A DNA stretch of 64,000 nucleotides, from positions 6,830 through 70,829 of the forward strand of contig QMMN01000007.1 in the NCBI GenBank assembly GCA_003647275.1, written 5' to 3'. This DNA comes from Deltaproteobacteria bacterium. Its GTDB lineage: Bacteria > Desulfobacterota > Desulfobacteria > Desulfobacterales > C00003060. The number at the start of each line of letters is the position of its first letter. The first letter of the stretch is position 1. A program made the translations under genes and the position numbers. The notes beneath the pieces were generated by a model that saw only the letters and a program-made list of their open reading frames with translations, had not been told where the DNA came from and ran no database searches. Shown here one piece after another: positions 30,742 to 54,317 of the stretch.

Positions 30742-32376
30742 TCATACCACATATCTGATTTGAAGCCGTTCGGCCGCAGCCTGATCGTTGATCCCGATTG
30801 CATCAGACATGCCGATGGGAAGCGAGGTGGAACGGCCAAGGGGCGCCATGATTTTTTTGAGCTCAGTGTCAAAGGAAAGAAAAACATCCACGACGCGCTC
30901 TGCCACCTGCTCCGGGTCCAGGCGCCGGTCAAGGCGGGGATCCTGGGACGTGATCCCCTTGGGGCAAAGCCCGATATTACAGATGTTGCACCGATCCGAC
31001 TCCGAGCCGACACATCCGGCCGCTGCTTGCATGATGTACTTGCCTATTTGCACACCGCTTGCTCCTAACATGATCAGAGCGGCTGCGTTTGCTGCCAGGT
31101 TGCCACTCTTACCCACACCGCCACCGGCAAAGAGGGGAATTTCGTTCTGCATGCCCAGCTTAACCAGATTGAGATAGCAGTCGCGGATATTGCTGGCTAT
31201 GGGGTGCCCCATGTGATTCATGGACACGTTGTACGCAGCGCCTGTGCCGCCGTCTTCTCCGTCAATAGCCAAGGCGGCCGCGTACGGGTTTCGGGTCAGG
31301 TTATTGAGGACCGCCAGGGCCGTGGTGGTCCCAGAAATCTTGGGATAAACGGGCACCCGAAAACCCCAGGCCATATACATGGACTGGATCATTTTTGCCA
31401 CAGATTCTTCAATAGAATACTTGGTCTGGTGCGTGGGCGGACTGGGAAGGCTCACCCCCGGGGGAACTCCCCGAATCGCCGCAATGAGTTTATTCACTTT
31501 GTACCACATGAGCAACCCGCCGTCCCCGGGCTTGGCCCCTTGCCCGTACTTGATTTCAATGGCGCAGGGATCTTCCTTCATTTCGGGTATGGCGCGGATG
31601 ATTTCGTCCCAGCCAAAGTAGCCGCTAGCGATCTGTAAAATAACGTACTTCAAAAACCGTGATCGCAAAAGCCGCGGCGGACAGCCTCCTTCTCCGGTGC
31701 AGATACAAACCGGCATACCGAGCTCTTCGTTAAGGTAGGCCACACCCATTTGGAGCCCTTCCCACATGTTTGGGGAAAGCGCCCCAAAGGACATCGCTCC
31801 AATCATTAAGGGGTAAATTTCCCGCACAGGGGGGATCCAACCCTCCTCATGGAGGAGCTTCATGTTTTCCTCAGGAGGCAGAACTCGGCCCAGTAAGGTG
31901 CGAAGCTCAAATTCGTGCCGTCCGGCATCCAAGGCAGGGTCGGTCAACATGGATATACGGATGAATTTGATTTGATCCAGAACGCCACCAGGGACATTTC
32001 TGCGTCCTCCACGCCGGCGGGGCTGGCCGCCTCGATTGATGTGATATCTCAGCTTATCCGCCTCATCACTCCGATAAGGGATAATGCAATCGTTGGGACA
32101 GACCAGAGTACACATGGCACATCCCACACAGGCGTATGAGGGGTCGGTTCTTTGCCGGATGCCGTAATACACCCGATACACATTGGACGGGGCCTCGGTC
32201 AGCCCGACCGGGGTTTCAACCAATCGCTGACGGTGCACACCCAATTCAATGGCATGAACCGGACAAACAGCCGTGCAGCGTCCACACAGGGAGCATCGAT
32301 CTTTATCCCAATGAATCTGCCAGGGCAGATCCTTGACGCTTAGTGTGGAAGGGGCAATTCTTCCGTTTGACGACAT
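30742..32376 (-). CDS. Glutamate synthase FMN/central-domain subunit with an N-terminal 2x[4Fe-4S] ferredoxin domain
   Basis: CSLCGRCTAVCP and CVGCAMCTLVCP, followed by FMN-domain blocks (EIKYGQGAKPGDGG, IPLFAGGGV). Confidence 0.85.
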   Translation of the reverse strand: MSSNGRIAPSTLSVKDLPWQIHWDKDRCSLCGRCTAVCPVHAIELGVHRQRLVETPVGLTEAPSNVYRVYYGIRQRTDPSYACVGCAMCTLVCPNDCIIPYRSDEADKLRYHINRGGQPRRRGGRRNVPGGVLDQIKFIRISMLTDPALDAGRHEFELRTLLGRVLPPEENMKLLHEEGWIPPVREIYPLMIGAMSFGALSPNMWEGLQMGVAYLNEELGMPVCICTGEGGCPPRLLRSRFLKYVILQIASGYFGWDEIIRAIPEMKEDPCAIEIKYGQGAKPGDGGLLMWYKVNKLIAAIRGVPPGVSLPSPPTHQTKYSIEESVAKMIQSMYMAWGFRVPVYPKISGTTTALAVLNNLTRNPYAAALAIDGEDGGTGAAYNVSMNHMGHPIASNIRDCYLNLVKLGMQNEIPLFAGGGVGKSGNLAANAAALIMLGASGVQIGKYIMQAAAGCVGSESDRCNICNIGLCPKGITSQDPRLDRRLDPEQVAERVVDVFLSFDTELKKIMAPLGRSTSLPIGMSDAIGINDQAAAERLQIRYVV

Positions 32377-33470
32377 ATCTTTACCTCCTGACGGTCGGGG
32401 CGTATGAATGCAGTGTCCAGGTACATAGGTTGAAAATCCTTGCTCTTATCCCGATCAGGAATGGCTGCATCTAACCCACACATTTCCGATGAAATCGCAT
32501 AAAGGCCGGGTTTGCCTCCCACCACACCGGGTCGAAGCTTTTTTCGATCTTGCACCAGGAAAAGGGTCTTGTCGGGCAGACAGCCGATCACACAATTCGG
32601 CCCATCAATGATGAGTCTCCGACAGGTATGCTTCAGATGTTTTAGGAAGCGACCGTTGGGGTGGTGATCCAAATCCTCGTCTTGCAAGGGTGTGATCACA
32701 TGCTTGTAAGTCTGGATTCCCAGTCCGAGCCGAGTCAGCGTGAAATGAAGGATATGGGTAAAGACCTCTGAATCGGACTGGTAGCCGACATATCCCGGAA
32801 AGCCGCGAGACATAAGAAATTCCCAAATGGGAACGAAGGCCGTATTTTCTCCATTGGTCATCGTAGCCACCCCCTGTATAAAAAACGGATGGCAGGCGTA
32901 GAGATTGATCGCGTAGTTGGTATTTTGCCGGCCCTGGGCCATAATCACCCTAGCCTGGAGTTCGGGACGATCGAGCTGGAGATATTCTGCGACGGTCAGG
33001 GGATCGCCAATCTCCTTGATCATGATCACATCCGGCCAGAAGCTGAAGACAATCATATCCTCCTTTTCCTCTCCCATGTGTCGAAGCTGAAGCCGGATGA
33101 GCATCAGGCGATGCTGAATCTCGCTTTCGCTCAACTCCTCCCAGGTCTCTGGATATTCATAAGCTCGAATCAGGTAGATATCTCGCTTGAATACCCCTGG
33201 CGGCGGGATTTTGGGAACTTTGATGGCCATTTTATATTTTGTCATAAACCCCACGTCTTTCATGAATTGATCAAGACGTTTCAGCCCCGCATTGGTAAAA
33301 ATCCCCGACAAGATGGGGACACCTTTCAACTCTTGAAAGGGACCTGTTAGATCACTCAAGAAAAGCCCCACACCGGAACCGTCGTGTCCTTCCTGCATCA
33401 CATCTAGGGCACGCATGGCGATCATGGGCGACTGGGGGGTATCACTGCTTACTGCAATCAGACGGCACAT
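32340..33470 (-). CDS. Class-II glutamine amidotransferase subunit of a split (archaeal-type) glutamate synthase
   Basis: Starts MCRLIAV (Ntn Cys at position 2). It is the first gene of the three-gene set and overlaps the next gene by 37 nt. Confidence 0.75.
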   Translation of the reverse strand: MCRLIAVSSDTPQSPMIAMRALDVMQEGHDGSGVGLFLSDLTGPFQELKGVPILSGIFTNAGLKRLDQFMKDVGFMTKYKMAIKVPKIPPPGVFKRDIYLIRAYEYPETWEELSESEIQHRLMLIRLQLRHMGEEKEDMIVFSFWPDVIMIKEIGDPLTVAEYLQLDRPELQARVIMAQGRQNTNYAINLYACHPFFIQGVATMTNGENTAFVPIWEFLMSRGFPGYVGYQSDSEVFTHILHFTLTRLGLGIQTYKHVITPLQDEDLDHHPNGRFLKHLKHTCRRLIIDGPNCVIGCLPDKTLFLVQDRKKLRPGVVGGKPGLYAISSEMCGLDAAIPDRDKSKDFQPMYLDTAFIRPDRQEVKICRQTEELPLPH

Positions 33471-33757: not shown

Positions 33758-35404
33758 TCACTCGAATGAGGGTAGGTACCTTTGGGCGATGGGATACCTT
33801 CTTCCATAGCCGAAAGATTTTGTGGTGACCTTCAATCCCGGGGGGGCCTGATGTCGCTTGTATTCGTTGCGATCAACCCGGCAGATGGTTTCCCTCACAG
33901 TTTGAGGGTCAAACCCCATGGCAACGATCTCCTCTGCCCCCTTATTGTCTTCAATGTATGCCTTCAATATCCCATCCAGGATCTCGTAAGGCGGCAAATC
34001 GTCCTGGTCTACCTGATCGGGTTTGAGCTCGGCCGATGGGGGTTTTTCAAAAATCCTCGCAGGAATCACCTCTTCTTTCTTGTTGACAAAACGGGCAAGC
34101 TCATAAACCATTGTCTTTGGAACGTCCGAAATCATGGCTAAACCGCCGCTCATATCACCGTAAAGCGTGCAATAGCCCACAGCCAGTTCTGATTTGTTCC
34201 CTGTAGAAAGCAGGAGGCAACCCAACTTGTTGGAAAGCGCCATGAGCAGGGTGCCCCGAATGCGTGCCTGGATATTTTGTCCTGTAATTTCCGTGGCAAT
34301 GTCTTTGAAGACCAAAGACAATTCCTCAAGAAACTTCTCGAATATGCCTGCAATGGGCAGTTGAATAAGCTGAATACCCAAATTGGATGCAAGGGCTTTG
34401 GTATCTTCAAAGTTTTCCGTAGACGTATATTGAGAAGGCATGAAAACACCCTTGACATTTTCCCTTCCAAGGGCCTGTACGGCGATGGCGGCCGTAAGGG
34501 CTGAGTCAATGCCGCCGCTCAATCCTACCACGACCTTGTCAAACCCACACTTTCGGACATAATCCCTGGTCCCCATAATCAGCGCATTGCACATAGATTC
34601 CGTGTCGGTTTCAGCAATGGGGTGCAGGTCTCCCTTTTGGGTTTGGGTATCAAAGACGATCATATCCTCTTCAAAGTCACGCGCCCGGGCCGTCATCTGA
34701 CCTGTTGAATCAAAGGCCACGCTAAGCCCATCGAATAGAACACTGTCATTTCCACCCACCTGATTGACGTACACGAGAGGAACCTGATATTTTTTGGCAA
34801 TATTGCCGAGCATGTCCCACTTAAATGCTCTTTTTCCGACATAATAAGGAGAAGCCGAAATGTTGATGATGAGATTGGCGCCATTCTTGATGATACGGGC
34901 TACGGGGTCAACAGAGTAAAGCCGCCTGGGGAAAAAATCCTTGTCATTCCAGATATCCTCACAAATGGTCAGCCCTATTTCCCAACCCTTATAAAAAAAA
35001 GAGCTGTATTCGGTGCCGGGTTCAAAATACCGCCTCTCGTCAAAAACGTCATAAACAGGGAGCAATCTCTTGTGTACTTGATGGAGAATCCTGCCTTCAT
35101 CAAAAAGTGCTGCCGAGCTGTAAAGCGGGTTGCCCTCCTGCTTCTGATTTTTATCTACAAATCCACAGATAACGCCGATCCCTTTGACGGAATCAACCAG
35201 CCTGTAAAAATGATCCAGGTTGGCGGTCACAAAGGCTTGCTTTTCCAGGAGGTCCCGGGGTGGATAGCCACAGATGACCAGTTCGGAAAACACGATAAGG
35301 TCACACGCAAGGTCTTTGGCCTTTTCTATGTAGGCCATGATCTTATCCATGTTGTGTTTGAAATCGCCGATCGTGGGATTGATTTGCGCAAGAGCGATCT
35401 TCAT
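33758..35404 (-). CDS. nadE: Glutamine-dependent NAD+ synthetase (nitrilase-like glutaminase plus synthetase domains)
   Basis: MKIALAQINPTIGDF CN-hydrolase N-terminus and the PP-loop GLSGGIDSAL. 548 aa. Confidence 0.9.
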   Translation of the reverse strand: MKIALAQINPTIGDFKHNMDKIMAYIEKAKDLACDLIVFSELVICGYPPRDLLEKQAFVTANLDHFYRLVDSVKGIGVICGFVDKNQKQEGNPLYSSAALFDEGRILHQVHKRLLPVYDVFDERRYFEPGTEYSSFFYKGWEIGLTICEDIWNDKDFFPRRLYSVDPVARIIKNGANLIINISASPYYVGKRAFKWDMLGNIAKKYQVPLVYVNQVGGNDSVLFDGLSVAFDSTGQMTARARDFEEDMIVFDTQTQKGDLHPIAETDTESMCNALIMGTRDYVRKCGFDKVVVGLSGGIDSALTAAIAVQALGRENVKGVFMPSQYTSTENFEDTKALASNLGIQLIQLPIAGIFEKFLEELSLVFKDIATEITGQNIQARIRGTLLMALSNKLGCLLLSTGNKSELAVGYCTLYGDMSGGLAMISDVPKTMVYELARFVNKKEEVIPARIFEKPPSAELKPDQVDQDDLPPYEILDGILKAYIEDNKGAEEIVAMGFDPQTVRETICRVDRNEYKRHQAPPGLKVTTKSFGYGRRYPIAQRYLPSFE

Positions 35405-35905
35405 AACCGTCTCGTAAATCTTGCAACTTGCTGAAGTAATTTTGCCCTATTGCTTATTGTATCACAAAATGATGCTGGATGCTCGATGTCCCGGATCCAC
35501 CGAGATTATTCCGGTAAAAGTCGGAATAGATTAAAATACAAACTGAATATATGTAGCCAGTATCAAGCATCCAGGCCGCCGCATCCATCTCGTGGATATC
35601 TTCCGCCACCGACTCAGGAAGCGGGTTATTCTCTTCGACGCTTCTTCGTGTCGTCGATTTCTTCTTGTCCGTAAAGCAAGAATCGATCTGTAAGAACATA
35701 TGAAGGGAGAGCCGAACCGCGCCTCTTCCTTTATCTGGGGAATGCCCTGTTTGGGGGCCACGTTATCATGAAGCCCTATAACTATAGGAGGCTCTTGCCT
35801 GTACGGGAATTTCTAATTTCATGCATTTTCCCTCAACCCCGCAGATAAGCAGGGCTAATCAGTGGCAAGTCGGTCAGGGAAAATCAGCGATTAAGCATAC
35901 TCACC

Positions 35906-35932
35906 ATTATACTATGGTAGAATGTTTGTCAA
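35906..35932 (-). promoter_or_regulatory. Candidate sigma-70 promoter (TTGACA-N15-TATAAT) firing towards nadE
   Basis: Both hexamers are perfect consensus on the minus strand, but the spacer is only 15 nt. It sits about 500 nt upstream of nadE. Confidence 0.3.
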
Positions 35933-36362
35933 TTTTCACACCTTCTGAGCGACAACACCCTTTCGCCATCCAGATCCTGAAGCCGACCCGTAAATCCCGC
36001 TCAACCAAGACAATGGTCGTGCCAATCCAAGATGACGACAGGTTGTTGCCCAAACAGCCATGCACCCGGCATGAGGAGGGCCATCAAGGGTGATTTCTTT
36101 TTGAAGTCAGGTCACTGGGAATAAGTCTCCTTATTACCTTTGGCTATTCGCTAAATGAAAAAACTTTTTTCGACATACCGGTTTATCCCATTTACAATGG
36201 GCGCCTGAGGTTGTAAACTGCATTTATATGTGCCCTTCAGGGCCAGCGGCTGGTTCGAGTGACGCGATGCATTCTGCCCCTGACAAGCAGAATAAGATTT
36301 GATCTTCCTCAAAAAGAGATGCCCCTTGGCAGTTTGCAAACGCCAAAAGAGGGGGCTGGGAC

Positions 36363-36415
36363 TTGAACATGCACAGCAAACGCATTCCCCACAGCTTGCT
36401 GCAGACCGCTTCAAT
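36363..36415 (+). repeat. 53-nt interspersed repeat, copy 1 of 3
   Basis: TTGAACATGCACAGCAAACGCATTCCCCACAGCTTGCTGCAGACCGCTTCAAT aligns along its full length with 44431-44483 and with the reverse complement of 38506-38558. Confidence 0.7.
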
Positions 36416-36725
36416 TATCGTGATTTAGGCAACCGCCTGACAACGGGCTGTTGCCCAGATAAAAATTCCTTTGAGCGGTCATTAAAATGTTTTTTGTCAA
36501 CAAATCTTGGCGAAGCGGAAGATCAGCGACTTCAACTGTTTGAGTCCGAAGGGCGAGTTTTGAAGTCGCCTGGAGCAAGCCTTAGATTTGTCAAAAAACG
36601 TTTTAGACCAAGCGAGAAGGGATTTGGGCAACAGTCTGACAATACCTGACCTATGGCCACAGCTGGCAAGAATTGTTGGGAAGAACTACCATTTTGTATG
36701 ATTGGCCGATAGAATCCTGCAAAAT

Positions 36726-36741
36726 TGTGTGTTTGGAGACA
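36726..36741 (+). promoter_or_regulatory. TGT-N10-ACA motif (NifA-type UAS consensus) upstream of the glnA promoter
   Basis: TGTGTGTTTGGAGACA lies about 80-95 nt upstream of the -24 element and is followed by a tandem GGAGACAATA x2. The motif has low information content, so a chance match is plausible. Confidence 0.3.
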
Positions 36742-36820
36742 ATAGGAGACAATAATTGATATCCGGAGGTAATCTGTAACTTGTTGATCTATAAGGCATT
36801 CTTTAACCGATCTTTCGACA

Positions 36821-36835
36821 TGGCATGACATTTGC
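36821..36835 (+). promoter_or_regulatory. Sigma-54 (-24/-12) promoter of glnA
   Basis: TGGCATGACATTTGC with correct GG-N10-GC spacing, 60 nt upstream of the glnA ATG (36895). Confidence 0.65.
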
Positions 36836-36894
36836 CCTTTAGGAAGGGCCAAAATTTAATCCAAAAACAACCAGATCAAGGAGGAAATGGACAG

Positions 36895-38319
36895 ATGAGC
36901 AAACCAAAAACCCCTGTGGAAGTATTAGATCTCATTGCAAAAGAAAAGATTGAAGTTATAGATTTGCGATTCATGGACTTTCCGGGACTCTGGCAGCATT
37001 TTTCTGTTCCGGCCAGAGAACTTGATGAAGCTGCCTTTGAGAGCGGCGTTGGTTTTGATGGGTCCAGTATCCGGGGATGGCAGGCGATCAACGAATCCGA
37101 CATGCTTGTGAAGCCCGTGGCAGAGTCTGCTTTTATTGACCCGTTTTTTACTGCAAATACCCTTGTCCTGATCTGCAACATCTGTGATCCGGTCACCGGC
37201 GAAGACTATACGCGGGATCCCCGGAACATCGCGCGCAAGGCAGCAAACTATCTGAAGAGTTCGGGCATCGCTGATGTAGGGTATTTCGGTCCTGAGGCCG
37301 AGTTCTTCATCTTTGATGACATTCGGTTTGATCAAAACGAACATGAAGGGTATTACCATATCGATTCCGCGGAGGGTCGATGGAATACGGGCCGCGTTGA
37401 AAACCCCAACTTAGGCTACAAACCCCGTTATAAAGAGGGGTACTTCCCGGTTCCGCCCACAGACAGCCTGCAAGACATCCGCAGCGAGATGATGTTGACA
37501 TTGGAGAAAATCGGGGTTCTTATCGAAGCACAGCATCACGAAGTGGCCACAGGCGGACAGGCCGAAATCGACATGCGCTTTGCACCATTGGTGGAGATGG
37601 CGGATAACGTATTGAAGTACAAGTATGTTATTAAGAATACCGCCCGTAAATATAATAAGACCGTAACATTTATGCCAAAGCCGCTATTCAATGACAATGG
37701 TACGGGCATGCATACCCACATATCATTGTGGAAGGGAGATCAGAATCTATTCGCTGGCGATGGCTATGCAGGTTTGTCCGAAATGGCACTATATGCTATC
37801 GGGGGCATTTTGAAGCATACGCCGTCCCTGCTGGCCTTCACGAGCCCCACCACGAACAGCTATAAGCGTCTGGTGCCGGGTTTCGAAGCTCCGGTGAACC
37901 TGGCCTATTCCAGCCGAAACCGCAGTGCAGCGGTTCGTATTCCCATGTACTCTCCTTCTGCTAAGGCTAAGCGCATTGAGTTCCGCTGTCCAGACCCGAG
38001 TTGCAATCCTTATCTGGCCTTCTCGGCCCTATTAATGGCAGTGATCGATGGCATTCAGAACAAGATCGATCCCGGGGAGCCGCTGGACAAGGATATTTAC
38101 GATCTGCCTCCAGAAGAACTGGCAAAGGTTCCCCATACGCCGGGCTCTCTTCGCGAGGCTCTTGAGGCCCTCGATGCAGATCACGATTACCTGCTAAAAG
38201 GAGATGTCTTCACATCGGACGTGATCGAAACGTGGATCTCGTACAAGATGGAGTGCGAGGTGCAGGCCATTGACCTTCGTCCCCATCCATGGGAATTCGC
38301 CCTGTACTACGATATCTAG
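36895..38319 (+). CDS. glnA: Glutamine synthetase type I, with the adenylylation-site motif
   Basis: 474 aa from ATG 36895 (GGAGG RBS 10 nt upstream). Family blocks are [16 protein letters not shown] and [13 protein letters not shown]. The adenylylation loop [10 protein letters not shown] is present. Confidence 0.95.
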
Positions 38320-38360
38320 GCTTTTTAAGACCTTTTGTTTACTCTCAACAGATGCCCTGG

Positions 38361-38384
38361 AAAAAGGGCGTCCCTTTTTGTTTT
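38361..38384 (+). terminator. Weak intrinsic terminator candidate after glnA
   Basis: AAAAAGGG-cgt-CCCTTTTT hairpin followed by GTTTT. The stem is A/T-rich with only three GC pairs. Confidence 0.35.
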
Positions 38385-38505
38385 CTTCATCCCTAAAGAT
38401 CATCAAAAATATATGGTAGCCCCACCTCATAAATACAATAAATACAAATAAGGTTTGCGGCTTTTTCCCCGGCATTGTAAAATGGCGGGAAAGTACGATC
38501 TCTTT

Positions 38506-38558
38506 ATTGAAGCTCCCTGGAGTAAGCTTCGGGGAATGCGCTCACGGTGCATTTTCAA
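38506..38558 (-). repeat. 53-nt interspersed repeat, copy 2 of 3 (inverted)
   Basis: The reverse complement TTGAAAATGCACCGTGAGCGCATTCCCCGAAGCTTACTCCAGGGAGCTTCAAT aligns with the other two copies. Confidence 0.7.
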
Positions 38559-38669
38559 CTCATATGATGCCCCGGTGCACCGCTAACCAATGTACCTCCG
38601 TGGAGCAGGCCCTGATCATTGGGGGCACATAAACGGCCAGGCCAGTACAGCCAAGGGATAAACCGCCTT

Positions 38670-41600
38670 ATGAAGCCCACGCTTGATATGCTTAAGGCCG
38701 CATGTCCAGAAGTCGATCAAAGGCTTTTGAATGCCCACCTTTCCCGGCTAAGCAACCGATATTTTGACAGGTTCGCTACGCACCAGGTTTGCGAACATAT
38801 GAAAGGACTTTCACGGATCTCAACCGAACATCCCGTGGAAGTGCTGCTGGATGCAAAAGGCGATGGGAATGTGAATTGTACGGTGCTGGCCTTTGATTAC
38901 CCTTACCTGTTTTCTCTGATCACCGGCGTGTTGGCAGGCATGGGCTTCAATATTGTGTCTGGCGATGTGTTTACATACGAACGGGCCCTCGACAAACCGC
39001 TGATAGATGTCTGCCGAAGAAAACTTACTTCCCGCAGGACAGTACAAGATCCTCTGAAAAGACGGCGTATCATAGACTTTTTTTCCGGTCAGCTGGAAAC
39101 ATCTCGCGCACCTGAAACCTGGTCGGATGATCTCAAAAAAAATATGGAAGATGTCATTTCCCTTTTGGAGCGCGGTGATAGCGAATCAGTGACTGATGCA
39201 AAACATCGAGTGAACGAAATGGTCGTCAAACGGCTGGCCGATCTGCATATGGATTCGCATCCGGTCCTGTTTCCGGTGCAAATAGAATTCGATAATGAGA
39301 GCGGTCCGTACACACGGTTGAAGATCGTGTCCGAAGATACGCCGGCCTTTCTTTACACCCTGACCAATGCCCTCTCCCTCCAAGGAATTTCGATTGAGCA
39401 CGTCAGCATACGCACCATTCACGGACGAGTTGAAGATGAAATAGAGGTTGTTGATGTTCGTGGCAAAAAGATTGAGGATCCCAATGTCTTAAGTCGCGTC
39501 AAGCTTTCGGTTCTTCTTACGAAACAGTTCACTTATTTCCTCGGGAAGGCGCCCGATCCTTATGTCGCCCTGCACCGTTTTGAACAGCTTGTCGGAGACG
39601 TCTTGCGACTGCCCGAGCGAGGCCAATGGATGGACTTGCTCTCCAACCCGCACGCCCTGCAGGATCTGGCACGGTTGCTCGGGACAAGTGATTTTTTGTG
39701 GGAAGATTTTATCCGTCTCCAGTACGAGACACTCCTGCCAATGCTTAAGCCCTTTTTGGAGGGGCACCGGTTCAGCGAGCCCGTAGACCAGCTCTCCCAA
39801 AGGCTCCGAAACGCCATAAAAGGGATCAACAAGCTGGAAGAGCAACGACGAAGGCTCAATGAATTCAAGGACCGGGAGATCTTTCTTATTGACCTGGATC
39901 ATATCCTGAATCCTGAAACGGATTTCAGGGTGCTCGCTAGAAGACTGACGGTCCTGGCGGAAAATGTTGTGAACATGGCGGCAGAACTCGCTTACGCACA
40001 CCTGGTCAAACGATTTGGAAGGCCTAGAACAGCGGCCGACCTTGAGGCCACTTTTGCCATTTTGGGGTTGGGTAAAATGGGGGGAGCCGCATTAGGCTAT
40101 GCTTCTGATATTGAACTCCTTTTTGTTTACAGCGATAACGGTTCGACGGACGGTGAAGAATCTATTGAAAATGCCGAGTTTTTTGACCGCCTGGTAAGAA
40201 ATACAACGCAATTCATACAAGCCAAGAGAGAAGGCATATTTAATGTTGATCTCAGGCTTCGCCCTTATGGAAACAATGGTCCATTGGCCTGCAGCCTGGA
40301 GAATTTTTGCCGATATTACGGACCAGAAGGATCAGCTCATTCCTATGAGCGTCTTGCTCTCGTGCGTCTGCGTGCCATAGGGGGCGATAAGAATTTGGCC
40401 GCTCGGGTGGAAAGAATTCGGGATCAAATGATTTATGCCTCTAGAAACATCAACCTCAAGGAACTGCGTGAACTGAGAAACAAGCAATTTAAGGAGAAAA
40501 CAGAAGCTGGCAAGCTTAATGCCAAGTTTAGCCCTGGCGGACTCGTGGACCTCGAATATGCCGTACAGGTTCTTCAGGTCATGTATGGCAAGGATGTGCC
40601 TCAGCTTAGGACACCTCGCATACACGAGGCCCTGACTGCCTTGACCGTTGCAGGCGTTTTATCACCAGTTGAAACAGAACAACTCACGGCTGCTTACGGT
40701 TTTCTTCGCCGCCTGATTAACGGTATGCGCATGCTCCGGGGTTCAGCAAAGGATCTTTTTCTTCCCCCCATTGATTCGGATGAATTTGCTCACCTTGCCA
40801 GGCGCATGGAATACAAAGGAGGAGGCGCACTGGATCCCACGGGGCAACTCCACATGGATGTCGAAACCCACATGGCTACCGTGCGGGCCTTTGTTGAGCG
40901 GCATTTTGGGCGCGATTCATTACCGGGGTCTGCAACCGGCACCGTAGCCGACCTGGTCCTATCCGATCGTGTGCCCCATGACCTCCGGCATCAGATTCTG
41001 TCTGGTGCTGGCTTCAAAAATCCTGCACGAGCCTATGTGAACCTCCGGGCTTTGGCAGGAGACGAATCACGCCGGCAGACATTTGCCAGGCTCGCCCTGC
41101 TGGCCTTTGACATTCTTTTGAGAACTCCAGACCCCGATATGGCCCTTAACAACTGGGAGCGGTACATCCGCGCCCTGCCGAGCCCTGAATTCCACTATAA
41201 CATACTTCTTTCTCAGCCCATGCGGCTCGAAATCCTGTTGAGCGTTTTATCTGGAAGCCAGTTTCTGGCCGATACCTTGGTGAGAAACCCGGGATTTTTG
41301 GACTGGGTCACCATCCCGAAGAACTTACACCAAATCCAAGGCAGAAAGAATCTTGAGGATGAATTAAGAATGGCTTCTGAGGGCTGCAACAGCCATAAGG
41401 TATGGCTTAATAAGCTCCGTCGATTCAGAAGACGAGAGATGCTTCGGATCGGTACACGCGATATATACCTCGGGGTGTCAACCGAGGATGTCATGCTGGA
41501 ACTCTCTACTCTTGCTGAAGCCCTTACCCAGGTAGTCCTTGAGAGGGTCTGGGCAACGCTCAAGGAGGAGCAGGAGACCGCGCAGGAGGTGGAAGCGATA

Positions 41601-42476
41601 GCAAATCACTTTTGTATCCTGGCGTTCGGTAAGCTTGGAGGCTCTGAACTCAATTACAGTTCAGATATTGACCTCCTGGGAATTTATGATGCCCCTGCCA
41701 CGTCTCTGGGGTCCAATGCTCACACCTTTTTGCAAAAGCGCTTCGCCCGGGTCATGGAAAGCGTACGAGCAGACCTTTCGATGCATACAGACGAGGGGTA
41801 TGCATATCGCGTGGACCTGCGACTCAGGCCATATGGTGGAGCGGGCGAACTCGTCCCCTCTGTTTCAGCACTCATAGATTATTATCGAAACGTGGCATCC
41901 CTCTGGGAAATTCAGGCAGCCCTTAAGATTCGGCCGGTGGCAGGCCACCTACAAATAGGTGACCATTTCCTTGAGAAGATCCGCCCTGTTCTTTTGCAAC
42001 GTCGCAAACGCGAGGCCATTGTCCATGCCATTGAAAAAATGCGCAAAGCGGCCATCAAAACCTGTTCTCGTCGCAATAGGCCCATCAGGGATGTGAAAAG
42101 CGGCATGGGTGGTTTGCGCGACGTGGAATTCCTGGTTCAAGGGCTGCAGCTCATCCATGGACCAGACCATCCCGGGTTGCTGGAGAGAAATACCCTGAAC
42201 GCCCTGGAGGGACTCCAAAAGACAGACATTCTACCTGAACCAGTGGCAGCGCAACTCAGGGAAGACTACGTGTTCTTGCGACGAGTCGAACACTATCTTC
42301 AAATTCTAGAAGATCGTCAAATACATGCCCTGCCAAAAGACCCTGATGAGCTGACCGCACTGGCCAAAAGGGTCCTTGGCGCTGAAGGGAATGCAAGCCA
42401 TTTCATGGAACAACTGGAGGGATGTCTGAAGCGCATACGGGCCGCCTATATCTCGTACCTGGTGGAAAGCAAGTGA
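38670..42476 (+). CDS. glnE: Glutamine synthetase adenylyltransferase/adenylyl-removing enzyme with an N-terminal tandem ACT-like extension
   Basis: Two nucleotidyltransferase halves (GKMGGAALGYASDIELLFVY and GKLGGSELNYSSDIDLLGIY). The first ~330 aa hold two ACT-like segments (NCTVLAFDYPYLFSLITGVLAGMGFNIVSGDVFTY and YTRLKIVSEDTPAFLYTLTNALSLQGISIEHVSIRTIHGRVEDEIEV). The start is uncertain: TTG 38619 or ATG 38670. Confidence 0.85.
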   Translation: MKPTLDMLKAACPEVDQRLLNAHLSRLSNRYFDRFATHQVCEHMKGLSRISTEHPVEVLLDAKGDGNVNCTVLAFDYPYLFSLITGVLAGMGFNIVSGDVFTYERALDKPLIDVCRRKLTSRRTVQDPLKRRRIIDFFSGQLETSRAPETWSDDLKKNMEDVISLLERGDSESVTDAKHRVNEMVVKRLADLHMDSHPVLFPVQIEFDNESGPYTRLKIVSEDTPAFLYTLTNALSLQGISIEHVSIRTIHGRVEDEIEVVDVRGKKIEDPNVLSRVKLSVLLTKQFTYFLGKAPDPYVALHRFEQLVGDVLRLPERGQWMDLLSNPHALQDLARLLGTSDFLWEDFIRLQYETLLPMLKPFLEGHRFSEPVDQLSQRLRNAIKGINKLEEQRRRLNEFKDREIFLIDLDHILNPETDFRVLARRLTVLAENVVNMAAELAYAHLVKRFGRPRTAADLEATFAILGLGKMGGAALGYASDIELLFVYSDNGSTDGEESIENAEFFDRLVRNTTQFIQAKREGIFNVDLRLRPYGNNGPLACSLENFCRYYGPEGSAHSYERLALVRLRAIGGDKNLAARVERIRDQMIYASRNINLKELRELRNKQFKEKTEAGKLNAKFSPGGLVDLEYAVQVLQVMYGKDVPQLRTPRIHEALTALTVAGVLSPVETEQLTAAYGFLRRLINGMRMLRGSAKDLFLPPIDSDEFAHLARRMEYKGGGALDPTGQLHMDVETHMATVRAFVERHFGRDSLPGSATGTVADLVLSDRVPHDLRHQILSGAGFKNPARAYVNLRALAGDESRRQTFARLALLAFDILLRTPDPDMALNNWERYIRALPSPEFHYNILLSQPMRLEILLSVLSGSQFLADTLVRNPGFLDWVTIPKNLHQIQGRKNLEDELRMASEGCNSHKVWLNKLRRFRRREMLRIGTRDIYLGVSTEDVMLELSTLAEALTQVVLERVWATLKEEQETAQEVEAIANHFCILAFGKLGGSELNYSSDIDLLGIYDAPATSLGSNAHTFLQKRFARVMESVRADLSMHTDEGYAYRVDLRLRPYGGAGELVPSVSALIDYYRNVASLWEIQAALKIRPVAGHLQIGDHFLEKIRPVLLQRRKREAIVHAIEKMRKAAIKTCSRRNRPIRDVKSGMGGLRDVEFLVQGLQLIHGPDHPGLLERNTLNALEGLQKTDILPEPVAAQLREDYVFLRRVEHYLQILEDRQIHALPKDPDELTALAKRVLGAEGNASHFMEQLEGCLKRIRAAYISYLVESK

Positions 42477-42513: not shown

Positions 42514-44265
42514 TTACTGTAAAGGGAGACGCAGGATAAAAGTTGTGCCTTTTCTTAATTCGCTCTGGCATTCAATAGTCCCGCGATGAGCCTCTACAAT
42601 GGTCTTGACGATCGACAACCCGAGGCCAGTACCCTTTTTGCCTTTGGTTGTAAAGAACGGGTCGAATATCTGTTCTAAGATATCCGGCCCGATCCCAGGT
42701 CCTGTATCTTCTATCCTGACCACAAGGTGCTCTCCCTCAATCCTTCCTTCAATACTGATGTTTCCTGAATCAGTCATCGCCTCCAGGCTGTTTTTGACCA
42801 AGTTATTCAAGACCTGGTACATAAGGCGGGGGTCTACATTGACGGGGGGCAAGTCAGCGGGCCAGTTGAGTTCAAGGTGGATTCCTCTTTTTTCAGTATC
42901 AGGCTGATGGATCAATAAGACCTCTCGAATCATTGCATCGATTGATCTCCTTTCTAAGCGCAGTTCCGGTTTTTTGGCAAATTGCAAGAAATTGTGGATA
43001 AACTCCCTGACCCGCGCTGATTCCTTTTCCAGTATCTTCAGTGCATTTTTCCCCGTCGGGCTGAGAGCTTCGCCCTTCAGAGTAGCCTGGATCATTCCTA
43101 CATTGTTGAGAAGGTTGCCCACCTCATGGGTTACCTTGCTGGAGGTCGTGCCAAGGACGGCTAAGTTCTTGGCGTGGGCAAGTTCCCTGGCTGTCTCTAC
43201 TTCCCGCCTTATAAATTTCTTAAGCGAAGCTGTCATCTCATTAAAGGCCAGACCTAGATCGCCAATCTCGTCCTGCGAGTCAACAGACACCTTCTGATCT
43301 AAGTCGCCCTGGCCTATTCGTTGAACCTGGCGATGCAGGTTGTGAATCGGAGTTAAGAAGCGTTTTACCCAATTCCACCCGAGGAGGATAGCTGCAAGGC
43401 AGATTAAACAGGTTATAAAGGCTGCCCGATAAATATTCTGGTATAGATATGCATAGATCTCCGGATAGGTCTGACTCAAGACAATAACCCAATCAAAGCC
43501 CGGGATATAGTAGCCCAAACAGTAGAACTTGGTTTCGTCCCTTTCTTCGATCCATTCGATCGGCGTATCTGATTCTCGGAGTTCTTTGAGTATGTCCGGT
43601 TTTTTTGCCGGAGGGGTTGTTACGACCCGGTCAATCTTCCGGTGTGCGATAAATCGTCCCGATAGATCCATGATATACACCTGACCCGTGTGACCTATAG
43701 CAATTCCCTCCAGTACATCCCAGACAGACTTGAGGTTTAATTCGCCCCAGAGGACCTCTTTTACCTCGCCTAAGCGTAATACAGGGACGGCTATATGAAT
43801 GTAAGGGATATTCTCTTTGGTCAGCATGACACCAGAAATGGCGTTTTGGCCCATAAGGACTTTCTTAAAGATCTCGCTTTGACTAAAGGTAATGTCATCC
43901 CCTTCCCGACCGGTAGATACGATCTCGTTTCCTTCTATGGAAATCAAAGAAACAGACATAAATTCAACAGCCATATGATTGAAAGCTGTCAGGGCCATCT
44001 CTTTTTGCCACCGATCCAGTTTGGTGGCAGCCATCACCAAGGCAAGGCCTTCCAAACCCTTTTGGGCATGTTCCATGTAAAGGCGAATCTCGCCGGCCGA
44101 GCTTTTGATGATATTTCTGTAATCCTGGTTTATCGTTTTCAGGAAATAATTATAGCTTGTCCAGGAAAGGATCACGCTGGTAATGATTATAGATAGGATC
44201 AGGAGGGGGAGGATAAAAAGGAGGAACTTATAGATTAATTTTGTCTTTTTGATTCTATTCATCAA
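42514..44265 (-). CDS. Sensor histidine kinase (TM, large extracytoplasmic sensor domain, TM, HAMP, HisKA, HATPase)
   Basis: Two hydrophobic segments flank about 240 aa (a Cache-like position, not verified). HAMP-like LHRQVQRIGQGDLDQKV, H-box VTHEVGNLLNN, N-box NLVKNSLEAM, G-boxes EDTGPGI and GTGLGLSIV. Confidence 0.85.
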   Translation of the reverse strand: MMNRIKKTKLIYKFLLFILPLLILSIIITSVILSWTSYNYFLKTINQDYRNIIKSSAGEIRLYMEHAQKGLEGLALVMAATKLDRWQKEMALTAFNHMAVEFMSVSLISIEGNEIVSTGREGDDITFSQSEIFKKVLMGQNAISGVMLTKENIPYIHIAVPVLRLGEVKEVLWGELNLKSVWDVLEGIAIGHTGQVYIMDLSGRFIAHRKIDRVVTTPPAKKPDILKELRESDTPIEWIEERDETKFYCLGYYIPGFDWVIVLSQTYPEIYAYLYQNIYRAAFITCLICLAAILLGWNWVKRFLTPIHNLHRQVQRIGQGDLDQKVSVDSQDEIGDLGLAFNEMTASLKKFIRREVETARELAHAKNLAVLGTTSSKVTHEVGNLLNNVGMIQATLKGEALSPTGKNALKILEKESARVREFIHNFLQFAKKPELRLERRSIDAMIREVLLIHQPDTEKRGIHLELNWPADLPPVNVDPRLMYQVLNNLVKNSLEAMTDSGNISIEGRIEGEHLVVRIEDTGPGIGPDILEQIFDPFFTTKGKKGTGLGLSIVKTIVEAHRGTIECQSELRKGTTFILRLPLQ

Positions 44266-49104: not shown

Positions 49105-50241
49105 TTATGATAGAAAAACCTCAGAGAGTCTGTATCTGGACTGATTTGCCTTTTTTTTATTATGCACACAGATATGGTTCTTTTTCAATATAGAAAGATA
49201 TTTGCCTGCTGTTCCGTATTTATTCCTGTCGGATTTGGCCTTGTCACTCAGGAACCTTGCAAACTCGAGCCGGGAAAATGGTCTTTGGCTGGTCTTTAAA
49301 AGAAATTCATGGATGGTCTCTATGGTGGTACACTTCAAGGTGCGATGCCATTGTTTTGCTGCCCCGCCATTATCAGATATGGTCGCTCCCTTTAGCACCG
49401 CTAAGAGCTCGTCACTCTTAACGCTGGCGTAAGCCTCATATTCTCTCCCTGACCCGTTTGATATTTCTTCGGGAAGGTCTTGAATGGTTATCTCCCTTTG
49501 TTTGGTTAGGATAACCGCCCGTTCGATGATGTTTTCCAATTCCCTGATATTTCCGGGAAATGAATAGTTCATCAGGACCTCAAGGGCCTTGTTTGATATC
49601 CCCAGAATATCTTTTTTGTTTTCACAGGCATATTTTGCCACAAAATGATCAACCAGGGGCGGGATATCCTCTTTATGGTCTCTCAAAGGGGGAAGCTGAA
49701 TCTGGATAACATTCAGACGATAAAACAGATCCTCCCTGAACCAACCTTCCTGAACGCCTTCCTTCAGGTCTTTATTGGCGGCCGCGATGAAGCGTACATC
49801 CACCTTGATGGTCCTGGTGCCTCCGACCCGTTCAAATGCCATCTCCTGGAGTACCCTCAGTAATTTGACCTGAAGGGATAGAGACATCACAGAAACCTCA
49901 TCCAGGAAGAGGGTGCCCTTATCCGCCAGCTCGAATCGGCCTTTTTTCATGGCAATAGCCCCGGTAAAAGCCCCTTTTTCGTGTCCAAACATCTCGCTTT
50001 CACACAGGTTATCAGCCATGGCCGAGCAGTTGACCGCAATAAAGGGTTTGTCTCTCCGTGGGCTATGATCATGAATGGCCCTGGCAATCAACTCTTTTCC
50101 TGTTCCACTTTCCCCGACAATCAGTACCGTGGCCCTGGTGGGGGCAACCATTTCGATGAGTTCATAGATCTTTAACATGGGTCCGCTTTTCCCCACCATA
50201 TTATGAAAGTGGGGTTGTTGGATAGCTTCTTGCGGTAACAT
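49105..50241 (-). CDS. Sigma-54-dependent activator consisting of an AAA+ domain with an atypical C-terminus (no receiver or sensor domain)
   Basis: Starts about 15 aa before the AAA+ core. [14 protein letters not shown] (HEKGAFTGA), and FPGNIRELEN. The last ~120 aa lack the usual AA-LG-SR-TLYRK Fis-type HTH signature. Confidence 0.8.
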   Translation of the reverse strand: MLPQEAIQQPHFHNMVGKSGPMLKIYELIEMVAPTRATVLIVGESGTGKELIARAIHDHSPRRDKPFIAVNCSAMADNLCESEMFGHEKGAFTGAIAMKKGRFELADKGTLFLDEVSVMSLSLQVKLLRVLQEMAFERVGGTRTIKVDVRFIAAANKDLKEGVQEGWFREDLFYRLNVIQIQLPPLRDHKEDIPPLVDHFVAKYACENKKDILGISNKALEVLMNYSFPGNIRELENIIERAVILTKQREITIQDLPEEISNGSGREYEAYASVKSDELLAVLKGATISDNGGAAKQWHRTLKCTTIETIHEFLLKTSQRPFSRLEFARFLSDKAKSDRNKYGTAGKYLSILKKNHICVHNKKKANQSRYRLSEVFLS

Positions 50242-50336: not shown

Positions 50337-52211
50337 TTAAAACTCAAAGTTTACCCCGCCCTCAATCCAGCGATCAGGTTGAGGAAAGACGTGGCGGTAG
50401 ATGTAGGTAGAGTTGGTAAGATTGTGTACAGCACCAAAGAGAGTTAGGTCGCCGTATCGGTCCGGAAAAGGGGGTTTGACCTGAAGGAGATAGTCAAAGA
50501 TAAAGACGCGATCTCGGGTCTCGGGGTAGCTGGAATAGTTATAGACATATTTTCCGACAATGGAATGGGTCATCCATTGATGTGTGTAGGAGGCCGAGAC
50601 ATTATAAAGGGTCCTGGGGATATCCTGGATCACCTTGTCGGTCTCTTCATCTCTCACATCCATAAAGCTCCCGCCGAATGAGAGGGTCAACCCAAAGCCA
50701 AAGGTGGCCCGGATGTTGCCTTCTACGCCCTGCCGGGTGACCTTATCGATATTTTCATACTTTTTGGTGTCCGGGTTATAGCGGATGAGGTCCTTGATGT
50801 CCGCCCGAAAAAGGTTCAGTTCGAGCCTCAGGAACCTGAAGGGTCGCACCTCGCCGCCAAGCTGATAGTTTATCCCGGCCTCTGGTTTCAGGTCCTTGTT
50901 GCCATACTGGGGATCGTTTACCCAGGCACCGGGTGGGGCTGAAAAGCCTTTAGCGACCTGGGCTCGGATAAGGGCATCCACGCCTGAAATACGATAGACC
51001 ATTCCGCCCGAAGGGCTGACCTCAGAGCCAAAATCATGGTTATCATCATAGCGAGCCCCGGCATTAAAAGAGAACGCTTCCAGGTTGAAGGTATCATTGG
51101 CATAAATGGCCCAGTTTCTGGAGTTATACTCTTTGGCATAAGAGCTGAAATCGTATCGGCCCCAATCCCCGTCAAACCCCAGATTAAACCTGTTTAAATC
51201 ATTGGTGTAGTAACTCAGCCGGGCACTGCCCCCCCAGGTCTCCTCTAAGTAATGGAAATAGTTTTCCCTGTGATCAGGATAAACATCGTCAATCCAGTTA
51301 AAGAATCGATGATGCCGTCCCTCAAGAGTCAGATCAAGATTTTCAACAGGCGAGGTCTCAAAGAGAAGGCGTTGGTAGGTGCGTCTGCGATAGAGGTCAT
51401 CCCAGAAATCCGGATAATTAAGAACGGGATCTGCATTGCGGCCCACATCATAGCTGTAGGCAAAGTTAAGGCGACTTGTCTCACCCAGTTCATGGTTGAT
51501 TTTGGCATATACGGCCTCCTGTTCGTACCCGGTATGCTCGATGAACCCGTTGCTCTCCTCATGGGTAAGGGAGAGTAGGAACCCAAAACGATCCTTCGTA
51601 CCGCTGAAGGTTCCGCGGTTCTTTAAGGTTTTAAACTCTCCATAAGAGGTGCGGAGATCGGCCACAAACGGCTTTTTGGGGTCGGGTTCTTTGGTGATGA
51701 TGTTGATCAAACCACCCAGGGAAGAACCCCAGGCCGAGGAGGCCGCCCCCTTGTAGATCTCGATCCGCTCGATCGTATCAATGGGAATATAAGAAAGGTC
51801 AGCCATGGGATTGGCCAGTTGGTTGAGGGGGATCCCATCCTGATAGATGGCCACATGCCGGACGTCAGAACCCTGGATGGTAGCCGTGGACTGGCTCCCC
51901 AATCCACCGTTAAACTCCACGTAGATACCTGGTACATACTGGAGCACCTCGGCCGCATTGGAGGCCGGCATCTTTTCTATATCATCCCTGGTAATAACCG
52001 TGATGTTTGCAGCGACCTCCTGTCTGGGGGTCTCCAGGCGGGTGGCAGTCACCACGATTTCTTCCAATTTATATTCATGGACTTCGGGTCCGGAAGGCAT
52101 ATCTGCTGCCCAAGCTTTCAAAAAGAACATAACCCAAAGAACAGAGCTAACAATAAGAACTACCTCAGTTTTCGGTTGTTTCATCCAACTCGTAATTCTT
52201 AATTTTTTCAA
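50337..52211 (-). CDS. TonB-dependent outer-membrane receptor (small, BtuB/CirA-sized)
   Basis: Signal peptide ending AWA, TonB-box/plug EEIVVTATR, and a plug domain. The C-terminal beta-barrel ends in GGVNFEF (terminal aromatic). The likely start is the internal Met at 52184. Confidence 0.85.
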   Translation of the reverse strand: MKKLRITSWMKQPKTEVVLIVSSVLWVMFFLKAWAADMPSGPEVHEYKLEEIVVTATRLETPRQEVAANITVITRDDIEKMPASNAAEVLQYVPGIYVEFNGGLGSQSTATIQGSDVRHVAIYQDGIPLNQLANPMADLSYIPIDTIERIEIYKGAASSAWGSSLGGLINIITKEPDPKKPFVADLRTSYGEFKTLKNRGTFSGTKDRFGFLLSLTHEESNGFIEHTGYEQEAVYAKINHELGETSRLNFAYSYDVGRNADPVLNYPDFWDDLYRRRTYQRLLFETSPVENLDLTLEGRHHRFFNWIDDVYPDHRENYFHYLEETWGGSARLSYYTNDLNRFNLGFDGDWGRYDFSSYAKEYNSRNWAIYANDTFNLEAFSFNAGARYDDNHDFGSEVSPSGGMVYRISGVDALIRAQVAKGFSAPPGAWVNDPQYGNKDLKPEAGINYQLGGEVRPFRFLRLELNLFRADIKDLIRYNPDTKKYENIDKVTRQGVEGNIRATFGFGLTLSFGGSFMDVRDEETDKVIQDIPRTLYNVSASYTHQWMTHSIVGKYVYNYSSYPETRDRVFIFDYLLQVKPPFPDRYGDLTLFGAVHNLTNSTYIYRHVFPQPDRWIEGGVNFEF

Positions 52212-53808: not shown

Positions 53809-54300
53809 ATGCCCCGATGTATGAGGCATCCTGATGATAGGAGATGGATAACCCTGAACGCCCAAATGCTTGGTAAACCTGTTCAGATTTTGTTGGTGGA
53901 AGACAATCCTGGGGATGTGCGCCTGACGCAGGAAGCCCTCAAGGACAGCAGGATGCTTGACAACCTGCATATAGCCAAGGATGGCCTGGAGGCCATGGCC
54001 TTCCTGCACCGAGAAGGCCGGTATACTGACGCGCCTCGTCCAGACTTGGTCCTGCTCGACCTGAACCTGCCAAAGAAAGCCGGTCGTGAGGTGCTCGCAG
54101 AGATAAGGGCCGACGAAAGCCTGAGACGAATCCCTGTGGTGGTCTTGACCACGTCCCAGGATGAAGAAGACATCATCAAGGCCTACAATCTCAACGCGAA
54201 CTGCTATATTACCAAACCGGTTGAGTTGGAACAGTTCTTCAAAGTGGTGAAGTCGATCGTAGAGTTTTGGTTTACCGTTGTGAAACTGCCAGGTGAGTGA
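53809..54300 (+). CDS. Single-domain response regulator (receiver only)
   Basis: ILLVEDNPGDVRL, DLVLLDLNLPKKAG, PVVVLTTS and YITKP. The start could instead be Met20 (53866). Confidence 0.85.
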   Translation: MPRCMRHPDDRRWITLNAQMLGKPVQILLVEDNPGDVRLTQEALKDSRMLDNLHIAKDGLEAMAFLHREGRYTDAPRPDLVLLDLNLPKKAGREVLAEIRADESLRRIPVVVLTTSQDEEDIIKAYNLNANCYITKPVELEQFFKVVKSIVEFWFTVVKLPGE

Positions 54301-54317
54301 AAAAATAGACGGATATC

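Follow-up and report, generated by a model that had tools for sequence, protein, structure and literature searches.

The stretch of DNA analysed here comprises 64,000 nucleotides (nt) of contig QMMN01000007.1 from a Deltaproteobacteria bacterium of the order Desulfobacterales (assembly GCA_003647275.1) and is referred to below as the window, position 1 being its first letter. On its forward strand it carries glnA, encoding a glutamine synthetase (GS), and directly downstream, on the same strand, a gene whose product is, judging from its domains, a variant of GlnE, the class of enzyme that reversibly adenylylates GS. Adenylylation of GS is a textbook regulatory cascade, whose wiring is known from a few Proteobacteria and Actinobacteria. 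The window protein would represent a widespread form of GlnE in which a putative GlnD-type sensor, consisting of two ACT domains, has been added at the N-terminus and the two catalytic halves are probably permuted (hereafter ACT-ACT-GlnE). This form is apparently undescribed in the literature: our search found no paper describing a GlnE with one or more ACT domains, and the review-like introduction of a study of canonical GlnE (10.64898/2026.09.02.748916) makes no mention of an ACT-bearing GlnE. Databases already label its parts automatically (Pfam ACT and GlnE, NCBI protein names).

The glnA gene (36895..38319, + strand) encodes a type I GS of 475 amino acids (aa), counted from its ATG, with Pfam matches to Gln-synt_C (451 bits) and Gln-synt_N. 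A ten-residue loop containing a tyrosine lies at aa 399-408 (nt 38089-38118), which we take to correspond to the adenylylation loop of E. coli (NLYDLPPEE type); an earlier, first-pass annotation of the window had stated that GlnA retains this loop, and it does. GlnA is the presumed substrate of ACT-ACT-GlnE. In most of the related loci with enough flanking sequence, glnA is likewise found immediately 5' of the fused gene, and the GlnA of the window is 88-91% identical to that of two of these loci (L001 and L004).

A GlnE With an N-Terminal Extension

The ACT-ACT-GlnE gene spans 38670..42476 (+), i.e., 1268 aa and a stop codon, an extent that agrees with the conserved start, the match to PRK11072 and the lengths of the homologues. 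In the list of open reading frames (ORFs) of the window, it appears as a single uninterrupted ORF (38619..42476, +) that opens with a TTG, 17 codons 5' of the ATG at 38670. A protein of 1268 aa is retained here because this ATG (MKP...), which has an AAGGGA 11 nt 5' of it, coincides with residue 1 of most homologues.

Both nucleotidyltransferase halves of GlnE are recognisable, as the first-pass annotation had noted: in Pfam, PF03710 (aa 331-582 and 855-1102) is each time followed by PF08335 (aa 601-744 and 1134-1259), which is the tandem arrangement that defines GlnE. The metal-binding motif G-x(9-13)-D-x-[DE], of the Pol-beta type, is intact in the two halves (GKMGGAALGYASDIE at aa 468 and GKLGGSELNYSSDID at aa 987), and throughout the family the active-site motif reads D-x-E in the first half (74/74) and D-x-D in the second (74/74). 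Among the NCBIfam models, the equivalog NF008292 (PRK11072) matches ACT-ACT-GlnE with 514.9 bits, for a cut-off of 487, and the protein stays under the cut-offs of both PRK14109 and PRK14108. Homology to GlnE sets in at about aa 285-292, with the PRK14109 alignment starting at aa 284, and the N-terminal extension is therefore ~290 aa long. An extension with ACT domains, as had been proposed, is thus present; its size had been put at ~330 aa and the onset of GlnE homology at residue 340, and both values have to be revised downwards.

A GlnD-Type ACT-ACT Module

The first ~290 aa make up a single module of three or four helices, a first ACT unit (ACT1), a helical hairpin and a second ACT unit (ACT2). 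An AlphaFold2 (AF2) model of this module, built on an alignment of 37 sequences, has a mean predicted local distance difference test score (pLDDT) of 83.8 and a predicted template modelling score (pTM) of 0.84. The N-terminal helices (aa 1-50; 38670..38819, +), modelled at aa 5-49, are homologous to those that precede ACT1 in GlnD, according to BLASTP and NCBIfam. They lead to ACT1 (aa 56-142; 38835..39095, +), recognised by its modelled strands and helix and by its homology to GlnD; this is a beta-beta-alpha-beta-beta unit with a DYPYLF loop, broken by a disordered, basic and poorly conserved insert (aa 103-132; 38976..39065, +; pLDDT <50 at aa 109-124). The helical hairpin (aa 148-191; 39111..39242, +), with helices at aa 148-168 and 171-191 and a pLDDT of ~90, separates it from ACT2 (aa 204-261; 39279..39452, +), which is supported by PF01842, by invariant columns and by the AF2 model, and whose loop, D223-T-P225-x-F227-L228, is invariant. 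A long helix starting at aa 271 then opens the junction with the first catalytic half (aa 271-307; 39480..39590, +), in which the helix LSVLLTKQFTYFL is followed by APDPYvALhRFE. This junction is the most conserved stretch, K285 and F287 being invariant among the homologues, and APDPYvALhRFE (aa 293-304) matches the (A)DPDxAL that opens canonical GlnE halves in a MAFFT alignment with canonical N-termini.

The order of elements expected of the ACT fold, beta-alpha-beta-beta-alpha(-beta), is found twice in the model as beta-beta-alpha-beta-beta-alpha, and these two beta/alpha units correspond to the two ACT segments that the first-pass annotation had quoted (aa 69-103, nt 38874-38978, and aa 214-262, nt 39309-39455). 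The Pfam ACT profile, PF01842, which had been suggested as a check, gives ACT2 (aa 216-276) 30.0 bits when aa 1-340 are scanned alone, above its cut-off of 27, and 26.3 bits in the full-length protein, below it; it does not recognise ACT1.

By several comparisons, the module is specifically GlnD-like rather than a generic ACT pair, as had also been suggested for the quoted segments. GlnD equivalog models make up essentially all of the ten NCBIfam families that best match aa 1-340; PRK05092 aligns aa 7-112 with its positions 679-788 of 940 (E=2.9e-18), and TIGR01693 aligns aa 17-278 with 617-842 of 850. In BLASTP, aa 15-102 match residues 655-742 of E. coli GlnD (E=8e-07), with DYPYLF opposite DRPYLF, and aa 217-256 match residues 817-856. 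A hidden Markov model (HMM) that represents the module in 74 family members is in turn collinear with the C-terminal ~240 residues of GlnD, both for the E. coli protein and for eight GlnD proteins encoded at related loci. Given that it is only 22-26% identical to such co-resident GlnDs, the module is best seen as an ancient paralogue of the GlnD C-terminal regulatory region. The equivalent of GlnD residues ~650-870 is all that is present, with no HD domain, and the window protein is therefore not a GlnD but shares its regulatory module. When the model was searched with Foldseek against a PDB library that contains no GlnD structure, the matches were the multi-ACT N-terminal region of the 180-kDa glutamate dehydrogenase (L-GDH180) and the ACT pair of SerB2, along with the regulatory domains of IlvA and aspartate kinase and the ACT domain of PGDH.

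Conservation and Spread of the Fusion

A pattern scan of one genome per species, queried with the N-terminal alignment, found a relative of the module in 401 species genomes of several phyla (with a single N-terminal protein as the query, no locus was confirmed); the counts of loci given in this text refer to the best 80 loci of these 401 genomes. The carriers belong mainly to the Desulfobacterales, the Desulfatiglandales (including the cultured strain NaphS2) and Smithella, and further to the Spirochaetales, Verrucomicrobiota, Kiritimatiellae, Planctomycetia, FCPU426, Firestonebacteria and Goldiibacteriota. At the protein level, 905, 327 and 87 of 1.84 billion cluster representatives are matched at E<=1e-3, 1e-10 and 1e-30, respectively. 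Chloroflexota occur among the protein hits as well. Complete ORFs are found at 75 of the 80 loci. With 73 full-length homologues, the window protein shares a mean identity of 65% in the ACT1 and ACT2 cores, 73% in the junction between ACT2 and GlnE, 65% in the first catalytic half, 56% in the second, and 26% in the basic insert (aa 103-132). The ACT pair is therefore as strongly constrained as the catalytic parts, and the fusion is genuine and defines a conserved family.

These data bear directly on the possibility that the extension is merely apparent, created by a misplaced start codon, by an upstream gene fused through a frameshift or by an assembly error. The TTG that opens the listed ORF 17 codons before the ATG, and two relatives with ORFs of 607 and 640 aa only (L004 and L073), could be read in this way. 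However, at 73 of the 75 complete loci, which stem from independent assemblies and from several phyla, the ORF is uninterrupted over 1228-1345 aa, with a conserved MKP start and no stop codon in frame, so that an artefact is hardly credible and is effectively refuted; a start codon downstream of the extension, which the first-pass annotation had named as a refuting case, finds no support either.

As for the two short relatives, the fused ORF ends after 607 aa in L004 (10001-11821) and after 640 aa in L073 (from 10001), both on multi-megabase contigs, and in L004 a different gene comes after it. These may be long-read frameshifts or genuine truncations to the ACT pair and part of the half that follows it. 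Proteins of ~860-930 aa with the N-terminal module were considered as stand-alone enzymes made of the ACT pair and one catalytic half; the one source-named entry among them is marked 'partial', and they were therefore treated as truncated gene calls.

Order of the Two Catalytic Halves

In E. coli GlnE, the N-terminal half removes AMP from GS (adenylyl-removing, AR) and the C-terminal half adds it (adenylyltransferase, AT). The first-pass annotation had assumed this order for the window protein as well. Comparison with canonical GlnE points instead to swapped halves, with the ACT pair placed on an AT-like first half (aa 308-744; 39591..40901, +; PF03710 at aa 331-582 and PF08335 at aa 601-744) and an AR-like second half (aa 828-1268; 41151..42473, +; PF03710 at aa 855-1102 and PF08335 at aa 1134-1259), joined by a linker (aa 745-827; 40902..41150, +). 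The second part of this linker, LSGAGFKNPARAYVNLRALAG...TPDPDMAL, aligns in MAFFT with real N-termini, namely those of actinobacterial canonical GlnE and of proteins with a second architecture described below (type B).

The active-site motifs are consistent with this assignment. Canonical AR halves bear the signature ELN[FYL]SSD[IV]DL and canonical AT halves EL[GT]YxSDLDL; the motif of the second half, GKLGGSELNYSSDIDL (aa 987-1002), is of the same type as canonical AR, and that of the first half is GKMGGAALGYASDIEL (aa 468-483; D-x-E). Profile comparisons of the separate halves point the same way. In NCBIfam, aa 286-840 alone match best on AT regions (PRK11072 positions 520-861 of 946 and PRK14108 positions 542-883 of 986), and the second half alone matches the N-terminal regions of PRK14108 and PRK14109; the halves of E. 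coli GlnE, used as a control, fell as expected in this split scan, save that PRK14109 did not discriminate between them. On E. coli GlnE, the family HMM of the first half scores 183.8 bits on AT vs 169.8 on AR, and that of the second half 263.0 bits on AR vs 247.2 on AT, i.e., 446.8 bits for the swapped pairing vs 417.0 for the canonical order. A homologue search with E. coli GlnE returned enteric sequences only, of at least 88% identity, which are unsuited as a diverse AR/AT reference; ten diverse canonical GlnE were taken from chromosomes or chromids mis-filed in a plasmid collection. The second-half HMM favours the AR half in all ten of them, and the first-half HMM favours the AT half in seven.

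Phylogeny and structure agree with the swap. In a four-cluster test on 58 halves and 411 alignment columns, the grouping of the ACT-adjacent half with AT and of the other half with AR wins 299 of 300 bootstrap replicates, and the second halves are placed among proteobacterial AR halves in a neighbour-joining (NJ) tree. Foldseek, run with the AF2 model of aa 1-583, puts the AT structure 3K7D first (E=3e-12, 351 columns) and the AR structure 1V4A after it (E=7e-10, 258 columns), and 1V4A is the top PDB match of the second half in phmmer. By homology, then, the AR half is not N-terminal and the AT half is not C-terminal as in canonical GlnE. In line with the placement of AT activity in canonical GlnE, the C-terminal domain of that protein has been used as its AMPylating, glutamine-responsive part (10.64898/2026.09.02.748916).

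Not all results fit the swap: PRK11072 puts the second half on its own AT region; the first-half HMM scores higher on the AR half in three of the ten canonical GlnE (Legionella and two actinobacteria); and a strict split between AR and AT was recovered in only 4 of 200 NJ bootstraps. The AT and AR assignments are made by homology only. The strict split fails because both actinobacterial halves group together, and the four-cluster test stood in for it. This grouping concerns the GlnE of L091 (Tsukamurella) and L092 (Nonomuraea), in which the AR and AT halves group with each other, apart from their proteobacterial counterparts; long-branch attraction, concerted evolution or an independent duplication could account for it.

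Were the halves in canonical order, the ACT pair would regulate the deadenylylating half, as PII-UMP does in E. coli. In BLASTP, the top single alignment to E. coli GlnE is indeed collinear (aa 394-1214 vs 88-918, 276 bits), as is PRK14109 over aa 284-1011, and the preference of the first-half HMM for the AR half of the Legionella and two actinobacterial proteins would fit as well. However, the bit scores of the summed pairing, the unanimous AR preference of the second-half HMM, the bootstrap of the four-cluster test with the concurring motif signatures, the alignment of the start of the second half with genuine N-termini and the first rank of 3K7D in Foldseek all run counter to this order, which we consider unlikely. 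A first half of AT type and a second half of AR type are, in contrast, quite probable, and with them an ACT-ACT-AT-AR arrangement, the reverse of canonical AR-AT. ACT-ACT-GlnE would then illustrate clearly how domains can be permuted in a bifunctional switch enzyme, one for which the annotation rule that the N-terminal half of GlnE is the deadenylylase fails.

A Second Architecture With the Module in Mid-Protein

The search of cluster representatives also returned proteins of 1213-1258 aa that carry the module centrally (about aa 450-800), between two catalytic halves (GlnE/PF08335, ACT, GlnE/PF08335 in Pfam). In these type B proteins, whose sources are Anaerolineae, the half placed after the ACT pair shares 37-44% identity with the first half of the window protein (253-362 bits), and the N-terminal half shares 32-36% with its second half, so that they would read AR-ACT-ACT-AT. 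Since the ACT pair directly precedes an AT-like half in both arrangements, ACT-ACT+AT seems to act as a conserved cassette. A further-reaching view is that it forms a portable, glutamine-gated and PII-independent unit for GS adenylylation, joined to an AR half in either order, which could run the control of GS without GlnD and PII in the source organism; this we put forward as a rather speculative possibility.

Relation to the GlnD/PII Relay

The window contains no glnB, glnK or glnD, as the first-pass annotation had stated (tblastn over the 64 kb with E. coli GlnB and GlnD, E<1e-5). It had gone on to propose that the fusion might short-circuit the GlnD/PII relay. In the fullest version of this idea, the ACT pair is GlnE's own glutamine sensor and replaces a relay that is absent from such organisms; the derivation of the module from GlnD and the lack of relay genes in the window would fit, as would the GlnE of Streptomyces coelicolor, which works without PII and GlnD according to the summary given in 10.64898/2026.09.02.748916. 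Yet absence within 64 kb says little for a genome of several megabases, and at related loci the relay genes stand beside the fusion. A full-length glnD is found within 10 kb of ACT-glnE at 8 of the 80 loci, including four of the seven closest (L002, L003, L004, L007, L015, L026, L044 and L066); these eight ORFs are 850-931 aa long, carry an ACT pair of their own and can be aligned with residues ~57-887 of the E. coli protein. At 16 of the 80 loci, between one and three PII genes lie within 10 kb, their identity to GlnB being 45-70%. In L004, for instance, the gene order is glnB-glnD-glnB-(one more ORF)-glnA-ACT-glnE. The fusion therefore coexists with the GlnD/PII relay in the family, a short-circuit is not supported as a family property, and the replacement of the relay appears improbable.

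The eight loci with glnD form clusters of glnB, glnD, glnA and ACT-glnE, some of them with two or three PII paralogues; the upstream neighbourhood of the window differs from theirs.

The premise from which the short-circuit had been argued, namely that classical GlnE is steered by PII and PII-UMP, is itself incomplete, since canonical GlnE already senses glutamine in its AT domain: it responds directly to glutamine, which stimulates the C-terminal AT domain (10.64898/2026.09.02.748916).

A Possible Glutamine-Gated Adenylyltransferase

Glutamine is the physiological activator of the AT reaction, and to our knowledge the glutamine site of GlnE has never been located. Three observations from other proteins are relevant to the role of the ACT pair. 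GlnD needs its ACT domains in order to respond to glutamine (Zhang et al., 2010, as cited in PMC11190351), an ACT domain of the GlnD type at the N-terminus makes the amylase AMA2 of Chlamydomonas glutamine-activated, and a loop aspartate is common to the ACT domains of GlnD and ACR11 (PMC11190351); in the window protein, this aspartate is kept in both ACT units, as D76 and D223. Because the module is GlnD-like and conserved, and in view of the GlnD and AMA2 precedents, direct sensing of glutamine or another amino acid by ACT-ACT-GlnE, as the first-pass annotation had suggested, is a reasonable inference; the bypass of the relay that had been attached to it is not supported.

The ACT pair would bind an amino acid, most probably glutamine, and the binding signal would pass via the conserved junction helix to switch on the adjacent AT half; the ligand-bound pair might also restrain the AR half. 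When glutamine is high, the GlnA encoded just upstream would in this way be adenylylated and down-regulated as a direct consequence. PII and PII-UMP probably still act where they are present, and the ACT input most likely adds to, or partly overlaps with, PII/GlnD signalling; it is taken as additive, and not as a replacement of the relay, because relatives keep glnD and PII genes beside the fusion. On balance we lean, with some reserve, towards a conserved ACT-ACT-AT-AR GlnE with a glutamine-gated AT half and a retained PII/GlnD input.

Other features weigh against this interpretation. ACT1 is divergent and gives no Pfam ACT match at E<=1, and the glycine usual in the beta1-alpha1 loop of ACT domains is absent (DTPAF in ACT2, DYPYL in ACT1 of the window protein). 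The AF2 model of aa 1-583 has a pTM of 0.58 and a low-confidence junction at aa 300-370, and therefore supports no fixed interface between the ACT pair and the AT half; ligand binding and gating of the AT half are predicted from homology.

The same loop glycine replacements would suit an ACT pair that is not a glutamine sensor and that responds to another effector, for instance a different amino acid or a metabolite, or serves mainly in oligomerisation or in docking onto GS or PII, for which ligand-free ACT-like domains elsewhere are a parallel. Among the Foldseek matches are ligand-free ACT-like dimerisation domains (9c7n, 9c7o) as well as ACT pairs that bind serine or isoleucine; canonical GlnE already has its glutamine site in the AT domain (10.64898/2026.09.02.748916), and the glutamine-binding residues of GlnD are not known. 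Such a role is nonetheless the less probable one, if by no means far-fetched, since by sequence the module is nearest to the regulatory regions of GlnD in particular, the surrounding genes concern glutamine metabolism and the aspartate shared by the GlnD and ACR11 loops is retained. Whichever ligand is involved, the fusion offers a tractable system to study how an amino-acid signal reaches the AT and AR activities, and allows one to test whether that signal can do without PII.

Gene Neighbourhood

Between glnA and ACT-glnE, a terminator-like hairpin with a T-run lies at 38351..38382 (+); as the outcome of a consensus scan only, it is not evidence of function, but it raises the possibility that transcription of glnE starts at a promoter of its own or relies on read-through. 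Inspection by eye for a sigma-54 promoter 5' of glnE gave a weak GG-N10-GC only, and an Rfam scan of positions 35000-39000, covering the non-coding stretch before glnA and the glnA-glnE spacer, gave no match at E<=0.1. The ~1.5 kb 5' of glnA (35405-36894) hold only short overlapping ORFs (<=116 aa) and may contain regulatory sites of glnA.

Further upstream, a long run of genes for glutamine use and nitrogen assimilation (11535-35404, -) ends beside glnA and ACT-glnE, such that glutamine consumers are unusually densely clustered next to a gene for the control of GS. It includes a purF-like amidotransferase, carB, guaA, carA, a glutamine-dependent NAD synthase and a glutamate synthase split over three ORFs, one of these three (32340-33470) having no Pfam match. 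At its far end, 11535-15272 (-) encodes a protein of 1245 aa with GATase_6 and SIS domains, about twice the size of an ordinary GlmS-type amidotransferase and with large parts that match nothing in Pfam.

On the 3' side of glnE, a dCache-HAMP histidine kinase and two sigma-54 activators are encoded at 42514-44265 (-), 49105-50241 (-) and 52165-53520 (-); one of the activators is NtrC-like, with a receiver domain and HTH_8, and these may be nitrogen-related regulators. A decayed copy of the 3' part of glnE, ~170 bp long (54303-54472), is flanked on one side by a response-regulator gene (53809-54300) and on the other by a TusA-like gene (54803-55399). It corresponds to positions ~42217-42379 of the window (aa ~1185-1236), with ~80% identity, indels and a broken frame, and could be the remnant of a second glnE or of a rearrangement.

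Comparison With Known Systems

Canonical E. coli GlnE, known from the structures 1V4A (AR) and 3K7D (AT), is likewise built of two homologous nucleotidyltransferase halves, each with PF03710 and PF08335, and shares the G-x(n)-D-x-[DE] motifs with the window protein. It differs in its length (946 aa vs 1268 aa), in lacking the extra GlnD-like ACT-ACT module of ~290 aa and, by homology, in the order of its halves, AR then AT in canonical GlnE vs AT then AR here; moreover, the AT-like half of the window protein uses D-x-E.

The closest relative of the module itself is the C-terminal ACT1-ACT2 region of GlnD, with which it is collinear over the pre-ACT helices, ACT1, ACT2 and the D-x-P-Y-L-F loop, at an identity of about 22-26%. 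In GlnD, this pair comes after the nucleotidyltransferase and HD domains, whereas in the window protein it is N-terminal and followed by a GlnE half; the window module also has a basic insert of ~30 aa in ACT1 and a helical hairpin between its ACT units, and is not a recent copy of a co-resident glnD.

The type B proteins of Anaerolineae (e.g., MBE7469082.1 and MCQ3977974.1) use the same three building blocks, with the ACT pair directly before the AT-like half. Their parts are circularly permuted relative to the window protein, the AR half coming first, and they are without the LLTKQFT junction motif of the window family. They are known as database entries only, under the automatic names 'ACT domain-containing protein' and 'glutamine synthetase adenylyltransferase'.

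The Chlamydomonas amylase AMA2 and the plant ACR proteins, finally, also carry GlnD-like ACT domains, and in AMA2 the N-terminal fusion of such a domain to an enzyme gives activation by glutamine (PMC11190351). AMA2 is eukaryotic, has a single ACT domain and an unrelated catalytic domain, and is likened to ACT-ACT-GlnE by description; it provides a functional precedent for the glutamine-gated enzyme proposed here.

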